Assembly (NCBI GenBank): GCA_016432325.1
Contig: CP066684.1
Location: 640,001-704,000, forward strand
Source of the DNA: Candidatus Aenigmatarchaeota archaeon
GTDB lineage: Archaea; Aenigmatarchaeota; Aenigmatarchaeia; PWEA01; JACQIF01
DNA length: 64,000 nt
Direction: 5' to 3'
This document shows positions 3,110 to 25,398 of the stretch, one piece after another. The position numbers and the translations under genes are program-made. A model generated the notes under the pieces. It made no database searches and was not told the origin of the DNA. It saw only the letters and a list, made by a program, of their open reading frames with translations. How positions within the stretch are numbered: position 1 is the stretch's first letter; every line of letters begins with the position of its first letter.

Positions 3110-3793
3110 GAATTGGAAGCATAATAGGGTCTTGTCTGCGGAAGAGTCGTCCCGACTCGCCCAACCGCAAACATATCAGAGTACCCGGCTGAAGTGACTG
3201 TTCGGTCGCGGTGTGTTGAAAAGGACAAGATGTGTTTTCTAGACCCTGATGGTTTCGGGAAGAGAGTTAGCAAGATAGAGAAAGTTAGCTATGCCGTTTG
3301 AATATGCAAAACGCTTCTGTGAGAAGCGCGCATCTAAAACGGCCCAATAACAAGTTCGGATCCCGACCACAAGTCGGGGTTTTAGGCTGAAAAGACAGCG
3401 ATGATCGCAAAATCGTAAGTATGTTACTTACGGGGTCTGAGAGTTGTCGGGAACATAGGCGACAGTGAGTATGTGAATACCCAAAGACCGTGCCTTCTTC
3501 CGCCATCAAGGTGGAAGACTAACCGATTGTGGAATCGTTGGAAAGCGCGGGATGATTGTTTAGGAAATGATACGAGTCGCAAAACTGCTTCGCAGCAGTC
3601 TGGCTGATACCTCTGCCAGTTGCGTGGAACGCGCGATGTTCCGCTTGAAGTTCCTCATTATTCGTAAAGATGACGCCGTGCAAAGGTCCCATATTGAAAC
3701 ACAGGTTTCAAGATTTTCTGGTAAACAGAAAACTTGAGACAAGGTTTCAAGAAAAACACTTGAACAAATCAAGGTTCGATAGACCATGTTCGT
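3110..3793 (+). ncRNA. Long structured 5' leader of the 23S rRNA transcript, including the 5' strand of the processing stem
   Basis: TTAAATA near 3090; more than 10 hairpins; 3675-3690 is perfectly complementary to 7090-7105; about 3731-3791 pairs with about 6987-7070. Confidence 0.6.
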
Positions 3794-5403
3794 AAAGCTA
3801 CGCCGGCTGGTGGATGGCTTGGCTTGGGAGCTTAAGAAGGTCGTGGCAAGCAGCGATATGCTCGGGGTAGGCGCAAGTAGCCTTTGAACCCGAGATTGCC
3901 TAATGCGACTTCGCTTCCTCTTCGGAGGAAGGTCCGTAAGGACAGGGAACCCGCTGAATTGAAGCGTCTTAGTAAGCGGAGGAAGAGATACGAGAGTATG
4001 CCGTCAATAGGGGCGACCGAACGCGGCACAGGGCGATCCGAATCGCTCCAGAAATGGAAGCGAGATGTGGCGCGCACGCATTTCTTAACCGCGCGAGCGG
4101 AAGTGGACTGGAACGTCCCGCGACAAAGGGTGATAGCCCCGTACGCGAACCGCGGAAGAAAATTGTGCGCAGAGAGTACGGCTCCCCGGATACGGAGTCG
4201 GAAGACGGCGCGAACCAAGCGCCAACCCTAAACACTACCCAAGTCCGATAGTGAATTAGTATAGTGATAGAACGCTGAAAAACAGGGGTAACACCCGGTG
4301 AAAAGAATCTGAAGCCAGTCGGTTATAGTCAGCTCGGGGCCCGCAAGCCGCAAGGCGGGGTCCCGGCGTCCGTTTCGAAGAACGGGGTAGGGAGTTCATT
4401 TCAGTGGCGAGGCTAAGTCTCTTGCGAGACGGAGCCGAAGCGAAAGCGACTAGCGCGCAGGCAACGAGGCGCGCCGTGCGAAAGCGCGGGGAGTCACTGG
4501 GATGAGACCAGAAGGGCGTTGATCTATTCCTGGGCAGGGTGAAGTCGAGCGAAAGCTCGACGGAGGCCCGCCTCCGGTGTTGTGCTACGCATTCGGGCGA
4601 CCTGGGAATAGGGGTGAAAAGCCAATCGAAACGCCAGATAGCTGGTTCCTCTCGAAATGAGTTATAGCTCAGCCTCGGCGGAGACGTCATGCGGGGTAGA
4701 GTTACTGATTGAGGAGCAAAGGCGGGAAACTGCCAGCTCCGCTGTCAAACTCCGAATCCGTGTGAGTCGTAGAAGCCGGGAGTGAGTGCACGTGGATTAA
4801 GTTCGGTGCACGAAAGGGAGACAACCCAGACTGTGGTTAAGGTCCCTAAATATCTGCTAAGTCGGGAAGGTGGTCTCCAACCCAAAACAGCGGGGAGGTA
4901 GGCTTAGAAGCAGCCACCCTTTAAAAAGTTCGTAACAGATTACCCGTCTAGGTTGGGGGCGCTGAAAATGGACGGGGGTAAGCAGATTACCGATACCACA
5001 GACTACGTCTCAAGACGTTAGGTGTAGAGAGGCATGCCGCGGGGACAGAAGCGGGGGCGAAAGCTCCTGTGGACCCTGCGGTAAGGAAAATCCTACTGGT
5101 AGTAGCAGCGAACGTGGGTGAGAATCCCACGCGCCTTAAGGGCCAGGGTTCCTCGGCTCTGTAGATCAACCGAGGGTAAGCCGATCCTAACGCGTACCTT
5201 AACCGAGTACGCGGAAAGGGAAGCCGGTTAATATTCCGGCGCCACTGGCGGTTCATGTCGTTCAGGAAGCCTCAGGGTATGCCGAGTATGGCTGTCGCCT
5301 TATCGGATGTGCGAAACTGATGGAGTTTCGTAAGGAAGAGAAGTTGGCGAATCGCATTCGGCCGCTCGTACGAGCGGTTCGGCAAACCCCCGGGGCCGGT
5401 GAA

Positions 5404-5454
5404 AGCATATGAAAATCGCCGCGATTTTCTATTATCCGGCGCATATGCCACCAG
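5404..5454 (+). other. 23S BHB intron 1 (51 nt)
   Basis: GGTG-AA|A ... CACC-AG|A with GCATATG/CATATGC stem; splicing restores CCGGTGAAAGA. Confidence 0.85.
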
Positions 5455-5766
5455 AGACTGGACGATTATACCGCCGTGTCCGTACCCAAAACCGATACAG
5501 GTGCCCCTCGATGAATAGTCGAAGGCGTTGGGACAATCCAGGTCAGGGAAATCGGCAATTTAGCCCCGTACGTTCGCTATAAGGGGTGCCTGCCCTCGTG
5601 TGCTTGCATGCGAGGGCAGGTCGCAGTGACAAGGAGGAACCGACTGTTTAACAAAAACGTAGCCGGCTGCTAGATCGAAAGGTTGTGAATAGCCGGTGAG
5701 GCCTGCCCAGTGCCGGTGTGTCAAAGTTGGTTTCAACCGACCTAAGCCCCGGTAAACGGCGGCGAT

Positions 5767-5814
5767 AACGAACAAAAGCCGAGCTTTTGAAATTTCGGCG
5801 ACGTTCGTCGCCAA
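5767..5814 (+). other. 23S BHB intron 2 in helix 69 (48 nt)
   Basis: GGCG-AT|A ... CGCC-AA|A with ACGAAC/GTTCGT stem; splicing restores GGCGAT AACTCTG ATCGTC. Confidence 0.9.
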
Positions 5815-5841
5815 AACTCTGATCGTCTTAAGGTAGCGTAA

Positions 5842-6016
5842 ACATTGGCTCATCTAGTAACTCTGACTAGAGAGCAAGTTTGCTACTTTAAGAGTCTTCG
5901 TGCAGAAGACGGTTAGACGCTGTTTATTGGGAGACATATCGCACGGGCAACTCTTCGCACTCTGACAAAAGTGCGACCTTCAAGGGCAGTTTACAGGGAA
6001 TGAGCCAATGGCGCAA
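5842..6016 (+). other. 23S BHB intron 3 (175 nt, no ORF)
   Basis: GCGT-AA|A ... GCGC-AA|T with 11-bp CATTGGCTCAT/ATGAGCCAATG stem; splicing restores GGTAGCGTAATCCCTTGTCG. Confidence 0.92.
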
Positions 6017-6603
6017 TCCCTTGTCGATTGAATGTCGACCTGCATGAAGGGCTTAACGAGTTCCCCACTGTCCCGACCTGGAGGCCAGCGAACCTGCCAT
6101 TCAAGTGAATAAGCTTGAGACCCCTGAAGGGAAGAGGAGACCCCGTAGAGCTTTACTGCAGCCTGATGCTGCTGTACGGTTTCTTTTACAGAGCGTAGGC
6201 GGGAGCCTTCGAAGCGTTTTCTCCGGAAGACGTGGAGGCGCCAATGGAACACCGCCTATTAGAGACCGTACGGCTTACGCGCTTGCGCGGACACCATCAG
6301 GTGGGCAGTTTGACTGGGGCGGTACGCTGTTGAAAAGGCATCAACAGCCCCCTAAGCTCAGCTCATCCGGGTCGGAAATCCGGAGTAGAGTGCAAGAGCA
6401 AAAGCTGGGTTGACTGGACCCCGAACAACGACGGGTCCAGAGGCGAAAGCCGGGTCTAGCGAAACTCTGTGTGCGCATTGGTAGCGCCCAGAGATATGAG
6501 AAAAGTTACCTCGGGGATAACCGGGTCGTAGTGGCCGAAAGCCCACATTGACGCCACGTGTTGCTACATCGCTGTCGGCTCATCTCCTCCTGGCTGTGCA
6601 GCA

Positions 6604-6638
6604 AGACTTTTAGGAGAAGAATCCTACTGGTTCTGCAT
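6604..6638 (+). other. 23S BHB intron 4 in the helix 91 loop (35 nt)
   Basis: GCAG-CA|A ... CTGC-AT|G; splicing restores CCTGGCTGTGCAGCAGCAGCCAAGGG. Confidence 0.88.
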
Positions 6639-7171
6639 GCAGCCAAGGGTGAGGGTGTTCACCTATTAAAGAGGTACGTTAGCTGGGTTCAGAACGTCGT
6701 GAGACAGTTTGGTCTATATCTTTCAGGGGTGTTTAGTGCCTGAGGGGAAGGAAGGATTAGTACGAAAGGAACATCCTTTCGACGCCACTGGTTTACCTGT
6801 TGTCCGACCGGGCATTGCAGGGCAGCTACGCGTCAATCGATAAGGGCTGAAAGCATCTAAGCTCGAAGCGATCCTCAAAAAGAGGCACACGGCTCTCTTA
6901 GAAGAAGAGTTTGATAGGCATGGGGTGTAAGCGCGAAGCCTCGGCGACGCGTTCAGCCCGCGTGTACTAATCGCCGGAATTATCTTGAACATGGTTTATC
7001 ACAAACCTTGAGTTCAAACAGCGGTAGCTTCGGCTATCGTCAGAGTGTTTTCCTGAACATTGTTTCGGGTTTGCGGCATTCGCCGCAAAGGGACCTTTGC
7101 ACGGCATAATTATTTTCGTTTAACATCCGTTCAGCCCGGGCTATTTATTCCGGTTTCTCTAAAATCCATAT

Positions 7172-7678
7172 GTGAAGGGGGACACGGAGTACTGGGGACG
7201 CCTCGCGCATACACTCAAAAGCGAAGAGGCGCATATGAAAAGCCTGACAAGCCCGTGTGATACCGAGGCTCAGGAGCACTCTCTGCTGATTATGGGCGCG
7301 TCTCTGGCCGTCGGGCAGGCAACCACTGAATTCTACGCGCTTCTGGGGCGCGGGCATGGAAAGGTTCCAACGGTCTGCATATTCCCTGGCACATTTGAGT
7401 ACCACGGCGATGACGCAACGTACGAGTCCACCGACGACAGGCCCGGATTCAGGCTGAGGATAAAGAAAGGCGGTCTCGGACTCACGGAATTTGAAACAGG
7501 CGGCATGCTGAGGTGGGCGACAGACCTTCCGGACACGGATCACTGCATCCGGTTCCCGAAAGAGGAAGCGCAGGCGATGGTATCATACAGCGACCCCGAC
7601 ATACGCACGTGGGACAACGCGCTTCTGATGTGGGAAGTCGGCGAGCGTACTCTGGGAACCCCCGCGCGCAACACATGA
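7172..7678 (+). CDS. hypothetical protein
   Basis: ORF with protein-like composition downstream of a TTTATT tract; start uncertain. Confidence 0.55.
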   Translation: MKGDTEYWGRLAHTLKSEEAHMKSLTSPCDTEAQEHSLLIMGASLAVGQATTEFYALLGRGHGKVPTVCIFPGTFEYHGDDATYESTDDRPGFRLRIKKGGLGLTEFETGGMLRWATDLPDTDHCIRFPKEEAQAMVSYSDPDIRTWDNALLMWEVGERTLGTPARNT

Positions 7679-7724: not shown

Positions 7725-8261
7725 ATGCACCCGAAGTTCCCCGAAGAGGTCGCGTATCTCGGCGGTCTTCTGAGAAGCAGCAGGCTCGTCAAGAACGGCG
7801 AGGATTTTGAGATACACATGGAACACGAGCGCGAGTTTCTGGAAGCCGTTGATGCGGTCCTGAAGAACAAGGTGGGCGGCAAGTACAAAACCGAAGGAAA
7901 CAGGCTCGTAATCCACGGCGCGGACCTGTTTGACGTGCTCGTCACGTTCTTCGGTCATCCCGACGAGAACGGCCGCTGGGCCCTGACACAGGAGATACGC
8001 GACGGACGTCTCGAACACAGGCGTGCGTTTTTGCGCGGGCTCTTCGATTCGATGGGTTCCCTGGACAAGACGCTCGTGATGAAGTACGGCTGGCACAAGG
8101 ACGATTTGAAAGAAATCTCCGGCCTGCTCGCGGATTTCGATGTCAAGCACTCTGTGAAAGGGAACGAACTGCACGTCCGTGACCTGCGAACGTTCGCTTC
8201 GCGCATCGGAACTCTCAGGCCTTCTCACGAGAAGAGGCTGGCAGCTGTTCTCGCCGGATGA
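7725..8261 (+). CDS. Free-standing LAGLIDADG-like domain protein, degenerate
   Basis: EEVAYLGGLL and AFLRGLFDSMGS helices; C-terminal F..RIG...P.H..RL pattern. Confidence 0.65.
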   Translation: MHPKFPEEVAYLGGLLRSSRLVKNGEDFEIHMEHEREFLEAVDAVLKNKVGGKYKTEGNRLVIHGADLFDVLVTFFGHPDENGRWALTQEIRDGRLEHRRAFLRGLFDSMGSLDKTLVMKYGWHKDDLKEISGLLADFDVKHSVKGNELHVRDLRTFASRIGTLRPSHEKRLAAVLAG

Positions 8262-24297: not shown

Positions 24298-25398
24298 CTA
24301 TCCTTGTATCAACGAGTTCTTGACGCTGGGCACCAGAGCATAGACGTAGCCCTTGCCTCTCGCGCTTCTTTCCACATACCCTTCCTCGGCAAGCCTCTGG
24401 AGTATGTTGTTCAGAGAGCGCACGGCGTGCTGTTTCGACTTATACTTTTCCAGGCCGAGCCTCTCCGCAATCTCCGATGGATACATGTTGTCCTCTTGGG
24501 CGAGCAACGCGACGACCTTCTTCTGCTTGTACGGCAGGTCTCTCAAGAAGTCCTTTGACTGGACCGGCTGTGCGTCAACTCTCACATTCTGCGTGCCGCT
24601 CGGCCGTGCGGACGCGCCAAGCCCGTCTATCTTATGGCTCTTCTGTTCTATCGCGTTTTGCACCAGCGAATCGCACAGCTTAAGAACTTCTCTTGGGAAG
24701 CCTCCCGAGCGCTGGTAGACCCCTCTCACAGCCTCGTCAGTAAACGGTTTACTGCCCGACCCTCCCACGCTTTCTATTCGACGCACAATAAGCTCCTGAA
24801 CCTCTGTCTCACTAAGTGCGACAAGATCTACCTTGGTAGTGACACGGCTTCTGAATGTCTCCAAGTTGCGTCGCAGTATCTCCTCCAGTGTTGGTAGCCC
24901 GGCCAGAACTAGCTGAACGCTGTCGCACTGATCTGTCACAGTCCTGAGCCATTCCATGTCACTCACATCGGCTTCGTGGCCCTCGTCGACTAGGAGAAGA
25001 ACCTTGCGCTTCGCACGGGCGTTGACGTGGCCAGCGAGCGTGTGAATATTCACGTGTTTGCCCAGAAGACGGTGAAGGAAGGATTGCGGGTACTGATCAA
25101 GGAAGAGCTCTACCAGTTCTTCGGGTTTGGGCGGTTTTGGAGCGTATATGACGTCGCGCTCCTTGGAGAATTCGTTTCTGAAGAGCTGCAAAAGCGTTGT
25201 TTTGCCAGAGCCTGTGGCGCCTATGACCAAAGCGAACTTATGGCCTTCTTGGACGTGGTTTACGAGGTGCTTCAATTGGTCGTGATAGCCAACGAAAGCG
25301 GCTGGCATGATTCTGAGAGTGAACGGATTCTCCTTCCAGCCTTGCTTTTGCAGCCACTCGGCCGCCGGTCGCTCGAATTCCTCTAACATGGTGGTCAC
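24298..25398 (-). CDS. ExeA-like AAA ATPase with C-terminal winged HTH
   Basis: ENPF, GATGSGKTT, LLVDEGH, VLAGLP, SGG.PRE; C-terminal wHTH. Confidence 0.85.
   Translation of the reverse strand: MTTMLEEFERPAAEWLQKQGWKENPFTLRIMPAAFVGYHDQLKHLVNHVQEGHKFALVIGATGSGKTTLLQLFRNEFSKERDVIYAPKPPKPEELVELFLDQYPQSFLHRLLGKHVNIHTLAGHVNARAKRKVLLLVDEGHEADVSDMEWLRTVTDQCDSVQLVLAGLPTLEEILRRNLETFRSRVTTKVDLVALSETEVQELIVRRIESVGGSGSKPFTDEAVRGVYQRSGGFPREVLKLCDSLVQNAIEQKSHKIDGLGASARPSGTQNVRVDAQPVQSKDFLRDLPYKQKKVVALLAQEDNMYPSEIAERLGLEKYKSKQHAVRSLNNILQRLAEEGYVERSARGKGYVYALVPSVKNSLIQG

Follow-up and report, generated by a model that had tools for sequence, protein, structure and literature searches.

Bulge-helix-bulge (BHB) introns in the rRNA genes of Thermoproteales, Desulfurococcales, and Aigarchaeota comprise an endonuclease-coding class, a class of hairpins shorter than 50 nt, and a class of remnants (PMC4496867). 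In Thermoproteales rRNA, short non-coding introns and remnants have been described together with the co-conversion of a hairpin intron by the enzyme of its neighbor (Jay & Inskeep 2015, PMC4496867). The window considered here, a 64,000-nt stretch of the genome of a “Candidatus Aenigmatarchaeota” archaeon (GenBank contig CP066684.1, positions 640,001 to 704,000), contains a 23S rRNA gene with four short inserts, which the initial annotation had interpreted as BHB introns gained by a route other than self-encoded homing. Like the introns described in PMC4496867, they have an EndA-type motif and conserved sites, with both coding and short alleles at a single site, several introns per gene, and close neighbors. 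They differ from those introns in their host, a mesophilic groundwater DPANN archaeon, in residing in the 23S gene, in their relaxed motifs, and apparently in their sites (1570, 1911, 1938, and 2534 in Escherichia coli numbering). Given that short rRNA introns lacking open reading frames (ORFs) are a known class (PMC4496867), the lack of ORFs alone is no sign of a new route of gain, and the four introns as first noted are ordinary members of that class. However, two features that are not described in PMC4496867 and look new distinguish this set from the known kind: a catalytically dead endonuclease gene, apparently relocated out of its intron, and a site-specific tile of exon-antisense sequence within intron 3.

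Archaeal group I introns at large-subunit rRNA positions 1923, 1931, 2500, and 2593 (Nawrocki 2018, PMC6125680) share with these inserts the same hot spot, the LAGLIDADG cargo, and the co-occurrence with BHB introns. Unlike them, the four inserts have BHB ends and no ribozyme core; at 35 to 175 nt, they are too short for such a core, which needs ~250 nt or more, and they have no match in Rfam, so that a group I identity was rejected. The host genome consists of 875 kb in one contig and was found in groundwater runs. Its 16S gene is located ~4.5 kb upstream of the 23S gene, beyond the window, and the 23S gene is organized as follows.

3786..6989, + strand: 23S rRNA gene (Rfam RF02540), single copy
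5404..5454, + strand: intron 1, 51 nt, E. coli ~1570; central helix 5398-5401/5449-5452, 7-bp intron stem, no ORF
5767..5814, + strand: intron 2, 48 nt, E. coli 1911/1912 in helix 69; central helix 5761-5764/5809-5812, 6-bp stem, lineage-specific
5815..5841, + strand: exon between introns 2 and 3, 27 nt, E. coli 1912-1938; loop and 3' strand of helix 69 and the helix 70/helix 71 base, 100% identical in intron-less relatives
5842..6016, + strand: intron 3, 175 nt, E. coli 1938/1939; central helix 5836-5839/6011-6014, 11-bp terminal stem, ORF-less
6604..6638, + strand: intron 4, 35 nt, E. coli 2534/2535; central helix 6598-6601/6633-6636, 4-bp stem

The boundaries of all four inserts were confirmed. 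Excision of introns 2 to 4 yields the junctions seen in intron-less relatives, the 70 nt around the intron 3 junction being identical in three such genomes of the same order (G009, G004, and G019), and comparison with the E. coli 23S rRNA bears out the four insertion sites. The 27-nt exon that separates introns 2 and 3 was confirmed as well. Contigs from another DNA run of the same study contain introns 1, 2, and 4 and most of intron 3, with no differences. In each intron, there is a 4-bp central helix, with the cut falling after the second base of 3-nt bulges. Random boundary pairs in the same precursor form 4 + 4 bp at a rate of 8e-4, so that finding them at four of four boundary pairs is far beyond chance. 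The two-bulge motif originally proposed thus stands with respect to the central helix and the cut positions but not with respect to the closure of the 3' bulge: the outer exon-exon helix is missing in introns 2 and 3, has 1 bp in intron 1, and contains an extra U in intron 4. None of the four has the strict hBHBh' form; with the outer helix absent or imperfect, they are classed as relaxed HBh'-type motifs, like nearly all alleles at these sites. After excision of intron 1, the stretch leading to the next helix is one base longer than UGAAAA, the consensus of the class. Register and spacing are identical in a close relative, L134, whose intron at this site is different (42 nt); an alternative 52-nt boundary, which would yield UGAAAA, was rejected because it forms only two of the four central pairs.

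Sites 1911, 1938, and 2534 lie in invariant functional rRNA, where the inserts interrupt helices 69, 71, and 91, all of them of fixed length. The genome encodes RtcB and a single EndA of 201 aa (at G000 849.8 kb) with an inserted loop, as in the N. equitans EndA. Such inserted loops have been linked to relaxed EndA specificity in DPANN (PMC5829648), and we take the one seen here to be the L3 loop tied to relaxed substrates. The identification of the four inserts as EndA-spliced BHB introns without ORFs is supported, and, as far as can be judged from the sequence, they are almost certainly spliced. EndA would cut each relaxed motif after the second bulge base and RtcB would join the exons; by analogy with known archaeal splicing, the introns are probably released as circles.

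Site occupancy was surveyed in 84 23S genes of the class, three of which were chosen because a site was filled. Inserts were recognized by a 4-bp helix and a stem of at least 3 bp in the best of 17 registers, so that some of the 257 BHB-like inserts found, at 84 sites, are false; 102 of these are no longer than 60 nt, 102 are of 61-399 nt, and 53 are longer. At least one insert is present in 68 of the 84 genes, and 22 genes carry four or more short or mid-sized ones, seven of them with no long one. Four ORF-less introns in one gene are unexceptional for this class. Depending on the site, 55-65 of the 84 genes lack an insert at the positions of the four introns, in keeping with the interpretation of the inserts as introns. 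The heavy interruption of aenigmatarchaeal 23S genes affects primers, annotation, and phylogeny.

As originally stated, none of the four introns encodes an endonuclease: they contain no ORF and no tblastn trace of site-matched endonucleases. However, the proposal that the introns were gained without self-encoded homing lacks support for introns 3 and 4, since intact endonuclease alleles occupy exactly their sites. At the intron 3 site (L1938), intact double-motif LAGLIDADG genes are found inside introns in L131/L132, L145, L186, G131, and G152, besides many alleles of 32-250 nt. The short L1938 alleles of one family, f28, have both termini and a block of 26-37 nt in common with the coding allele of G131, and on sequence comparison this family is a decay series. 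At the intron 4 site (L2534), 14 alleles were seen, of which intron 4 is the shortest; two of them (815 and 910 nt; genomes G115 and G134) code for LAGLIDADG proteins with both catalytic acids. One of the four introns, intron 3, descends from a mobile endonuclease-coding intron, and another, intron 4, probably does as well. For introns 1 and 2, gain without homing or by co-conversion is conceivable, as the 84 genes and 17 further loci yielded no endonuclease-bearing allele at L1569/1570 or L1911/1912.

No second allele with the pattern of intron 2 was found at L1911 in 371 genomes of the class. This intron is absent from L134, L145, and L185, and a diverged copy is present in run X5. The neighboring site L1912 is filled in at least 8 genomes, and the site one base 3' of that of intron 1 is filled in G299, G305, and probably G318 and G297. 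In L134, whose exons are 88% identical to those studied here, sites 1, 3, and 4 carry different or longer introns in the same registers and site 2 carries none; judging from its absence in such a close relative, intron 2 is probably of recent origin. Polymorphism in the lineage extends to further sites, as indicated by an additional 38-nt palindromic insert in the relative in run X5 (at window position ~4440-4446) and by a 45-nt insert at E. coli ~632 in L134. Two inserts initially assigned to L1938 (790 nt in G248 and 329 nt in G276a) proved to be composite inserts at other sites and were not counted, and viral contigs showed no filled L1938 site with the short-intron pattern. Similar ORF-less L2534 introns of 71-81 nt are found in two different orders (L078 of G013, L113 of G019, and L083 of G275), which suggests either horizontal spread or long retention without an endonuclease. 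Positions 6620-6631 of intron 4 are an exact 12-nt copy of positions 5089-5100 of the same 23S gene, which may be due to chance.

A tblastn search of this genome with the L1938 enzymes revealed a match (E = 3e-12) outside the introns.

7725..8261, + strand: free-standing double-motif LAGLIDADG gene, 178 aa, 735 nt downstream of the 23S gene, both catalytic acids missing

Among 132 intron ORFs, those at L1938 are the closest to this gene (6e-13 vs 1.7e-6). The match of its product to PF14528 is below the cut-off, and the predicted fold (predicted local distance difference test score 87) places it in the LAGLIDADG family, with I-DmoI as the best match (E = 8e-7; template modeling score 0.61). 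Its intact relatives, like I-DmoI from the Desulfurococcus mobilis 23S intron, are encoded in 23S BHB introns; unlike I-DmoI, the free protein lacks both metal-binding acids and its gene is located outside an intron. The catalytic positions are occupied by Ser and Met (Lys/Ser/Asn and Met/Phe/Leu in five relatives), and with such residues the product is predicted to be incapable of acting as an active LAGLIDADG endonuclease. Both acids are likewise missing in four relatives with 57-63% identity. Nevertheless, the gene is under purifying selection, with nonsynonymous differences (pN) of 0.23-0.26 versus synonymous ones (pS) of 0.69-0.74, and in four of the five family members it lies 0.25-2.2 kb downstream of the 23S gene. 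Among 40 relatives, it was found in this genus only. An unannotated ORF of 168 aa (7172-7678) directly precedes it on the same strand, and a 172-aa gene occupies that place in L162.

The origin of the free gene is indicated by a profile search of 1.84 billion proteins, in which the best match outside the family was the protein P0006 (E = 9e-34), followed by an intact L1938 enzyme. P0006 also lacks the acids and is encoded within a BHB intron of 730 nt at L1938; the exon bases on either side of that intron show 98% identity to those of this genome, and its terminal stem resembles that of intron 3. In the phylogenetic tree, the free gene and P0006 are sisters (support 100/99). As this nearest relative still resides inside an L1938 intron, the gene of intron 3 itself appears to have been inactivated inside the intron, then moved out and retained, perhaps now serving the host. 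For archaeal BHB introns, we found no description of an endonuclease gene being inactivated within its intron, leaving it, and then being retained.

It is quite likely that the four inserts are BHB introns at the ORF-less end of a homing-intron cycle and that the gene of intron 3 can be traced to the dead free copy. Sites L1938 and L2534 would have been invaded by LAGLIDADG homing introns, with the ORFs lost later. For intron 3, the path, as we infer its direction, would lead from an intact endonuclease within the intron, through a catalytically dead but intact intronic ORF (as in L185), to an ORF-less intron with the dead gene moved to just downstream of the 23S gene and kept under selection in the genus. 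Such a traceable series from a homing intron to an ORF-less one bears on the origin of short archaeal introns. Introns 1 and 2 would be later or separate gains, whether through an endonuclease allele that escaped detection and decayed, through co-conversion, or through RNA-level transposition. Several observations weigh against this account. No sequence trace of an ORF is left in intron 3, and no trace links intron 4 to the L2534 endonuclease alleles beyond the shared site. The branch that unites the dead family with the intact L1938 endonucleases received support of 86/99 and 65/11 in two different trees, L185 consists of one contig of 788 nt, and in the other carriers of the free gene the 23S regions are too short to show whether intron 3 is present. 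None of the RNA runs examined contains this organism (X7 contains only other archaea), and there are no splice-junction reads. In RNAfold calculations, the BHB fold of intron 3 lies 13.5 kcal/mol above the minimum and that of intron 2 is disfavored in a short context; in the minimum-energy folds, intron 2 is stacked on helix 69 and intron 3 is paired with the exon. Such folds, and the lack of junction reads, would fit inserts that are retained in the rRNA as expansion segments or remain as non-religated intervening sequences of a fragmented 23S rRNA. This explanation is nonetheless highly improbable: BHB geometry coincides with the alignment-defined boundaries four times, at the above chance rate for each, unrelated inserts that occupy these sites in other genomes retain it, and the interrupted helices are invariant in length.

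Gain of all four introns de novo without homing, for instance by RNA-level transposition or from genome-wide hairpin modules, is improbable too, if to a lesser degree. RNA-level intron transposition, involving EndA/RtcB and gene conversion, was reportedly proposed by Fujishima in 2010 for the tRNA introns of Thermoproteales. De novo gain would be consistent with the lack of endonuclease alleles at the sites of introns 1 and 2, with the large share of class inserts of 60 nt or less, and with the absence of intron 2 from L134, so that this intron was probably gained after the L1938 enzyme had died in the lineage. In addition, the stem-loop core of intron 2 is common to a 16S intron, and its hairpin has a 13-nt match beside a tRNA gene. 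However, intact endonuclease alleles occupy exactly L1938 and L2534 in other genomes and the gene of intron 3 could be traced, both of which argue against this explanation for the whole set. A genome-wide repeat family was rejected, as the four introns have only weak matches of 12-19 nt (E = 0.025 or worse). Sampling is also thin: the L1938 endonuclease alleles were missed in the first class survey and found later. The hairpin match just mentioned belongs to a tRNA-like gene (G000 24936-25135, minus strand) that is preceded by a 21-nt direct repeat of its own 5' end; it lies between the repeat copies, before the tRNA and not within an intron.

The second distinctive feature is found within intron 3, where a segment complementary to the flanking exons is accompanied by a short direct copy.

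5881..5931, + strand: antisense tile within intron 3 (its nt 40-90), four adjacent runs of 11-14 bp with the flanking exons
5881-5893: tile run pairing with exon 5826-5838 (E. coli 1923-1935)
5895-5905: tile run pairing with exon 6040-6050 (E. coli 1962-1972)
5906-5917: tile run pairing with exon 5818-5829 (E. coli 1915-1926)
5918-5931: tile run pairing with exon 5748-5761 (E. coli 1893-1906)
5858..5866, + strand: direct copy of the helix 69 loop, 9 nt, in the hairpin loop of intron 3; in L134 in the loop of a different stem

Runs of at least 11 bp cover 50 nt, compared with a mean of 1.7 and a maximum of 26 in 1000 shuffles (p about 0.001). These values come from an ungapped-run test, used instead of a gapped local-alignment test that was too permissive and showed nothing. 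The signal peaks at the site of intron 3 itself and drops to 0 in a control with C-A in place of G-U. Sense or antisense copies of the flanks are not significant in introns 1, 2, and 4. The idea that short introns are, as a general rule, antisense copies of their flanks was rejected (class total of 913 nt vs 860 nt in shuffles), whereas the L1938 introns show 136 nt of antisense coverage versus 37 nt in shuffles and supply the three highest values among 224 class introns. Antisense sequence to 1915-1926 recurs in three unalignable groups of L1938 introns, tracking the exon variants of each. In G131, the antisense block overlaps the ORF, and it is the sole internal block kept in the short f28 derivatives after ORF loss.

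In the folding model, the tile captures the 27-nt exon, giving a state 13.5 kcal/mol below the BHB fold, and the central helix of intron 2 is predicted, by the model only, to rise from 0.21 to 0.82 when intron 3 is present. The modeled probability of the BHB fold of intron 3 is 0 even with the tile shuffled, so this model cannot show the tile blocking splicing. On balance, the tile may well act as a cis-acting clamp on helices 68 to 71 during maturation. It is also conceivable, though we read the evidence as favoring a clamp, that the tile is a neutral relic of a local inverted duplication in break repair and not a selected pairing element. The direct copies of nearby exon sequence in intron 3 would fit such an origin, as would three pair-breaking changes that L134 carries in its version of the tile, which it shares with intron 3, and the lack of a tile in the shortest and several endonuclease alleles. 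All nine departures from perfect complementarity are C>T or A>G, as expected from deamination of the non-template strand, but this bias fits a clamp and a relic alike. The restriction of the antisense excess to L1938, the way in which the 1915-1926 antisense in the unalignable groups follows the exon variants, and the retention of the antisense block alone inside the f28 introns after ORF loss all argue against a neutral relic.

For the dead protein, two functions can be envisaged. It might be a DNA-binding protein for the rDNA around L1938 or for the rRNA promoter, either a WhiA-like regulator or a shield against incoming endonucleases, which is possible but unlikely. The predicted I-DmoI-like fold is complete, with WhiA among the matches, and basic residues are conserved in the strands; WhiA itself is a domesticated LAGLIDADG protein that lacks the same acids (PMC3384342). 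However, intron 3 interrupts the homing site in this genome, and there is no helix-turn-helix or other added domain, such as the helix-turn-helix domain of the pan-Gram-positive WhiA; the free gene is genus-restricted and encodes a single domain pair. Rather more doubtful is a role as a maturase acting in trans, which would bind intron 3 and convert its exon-paired structure into the BHB fold required for EndA. Consistent with such a role, both acids were lost while the gene was still intron-encoded (P0006), selection was kept after its exit, the gene still lies beside the 23S gene, and both intron 3 and the intron of L134 are predicted to misfold onto the exon. Group I introns are known to have LAGLIDADG maturases that are no longer nucleases; such maturases (bI2, bI3, and I-AniI), like WhiA/DUF199, kept the fold after losing the nuclease residues (PMC3384342). 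Group I maturases are encoded within the ribozyme introns that they serve; in the analogous case proposed here, the intron would be protein-spliced and the gene is free. On the other side, thermodynamic folds of rRNA precursors are unreliable, and other L1938 introns with antisense elements (in G133, G139, and the L135 group) are also predicted to misfold, while the query used here retrieved no such gene from their lineages. A combined model, in which the tile of intron 3 would clamp helices 68 to 71 of the nascent 23S rRNA, freeing the motif of intron 2, and the dead protein would then refold intron 3 into the BHB form for EndA, is speculative and, taken as a whole, the least likely of these proposals. 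If it were true, the dead protein would be a maturase for a protein-spliced archaeal intron, with its domestication seen in three stages.

Intron 3 resembles the box C/D and H/ACA guide RNAs of archaea, some of which are located in introns, in having rRNA-complementary stretches of 11-14 nt. Unlike those of guide RNAs, its four stretches are aimed at its own flanks and are not accompanied by a C/D architecture, an ACA box at 14-16 nt, or a kink-turn. A box C/D guide was rejected, as no C/D architecture was detected in introns 1 to 4 or in linear or circular intron 3 by a scanner that does find one in a 16S intron. An H/ACA guide was rejected by inspection of intron 3, which showed no ACA at 14-16 nt, no K-loop or kink-turn, and no lower stem. 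Positions 5959-5970 of intron 3 and the 16S C/D intron (L001 ~3571-3582) have in common 12 nt surrounding a CUGA box, which may be the remains of a guide module. The L1938 introns of L135, L136, L138, L140, L141, L144, and L146 form a family of 125-170 nt with a covarying stem and a kink-turn-like tandem GA motif; they also contain segments antisense to 1919-1926 and 1962-1968 and are possibly guide-like RNAs that bind L7Ae. The L2306 introns in L102 (G115) and L072 (G118) have a C/D-box architecture with a guide of 10-12 bp against the same 23S rRNA, and the introns at that site show an antisense excess of 96 versus 29 nt.

The 16S C/D intron is a 108-nt BHB intron near E. coli 1491/1492, located outside the window (L001 3523-3630; G000 ~639117-639224). 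It displays a full C-D'-C'-D architecture, seen in 0 of 2000 shuffles, with a 9-bp guide against 16S ~1405-1413, and the genome encodes fibrillarin and Nop5. A 522-nt BHB intron near 16S position 1228 (L001 2747-3268) contains a shortened LAGLIDADG ORF in which the helix of the second motif seems to be missing and which, having no stop codon, continues into the exon. The 16S gene has two further inserts (44 and 43 nt, near 519 and 908). The match to Nop5 is split into two parts within one frame, and the open frame that contains RtcB, of 608 aa, is longer than usual (G000 756235-756858 and 406386-407777, respectively). ARAGORN with default settings recognized only 12 tRNA genes in the whole genome, nearly all of them intron-bearing.
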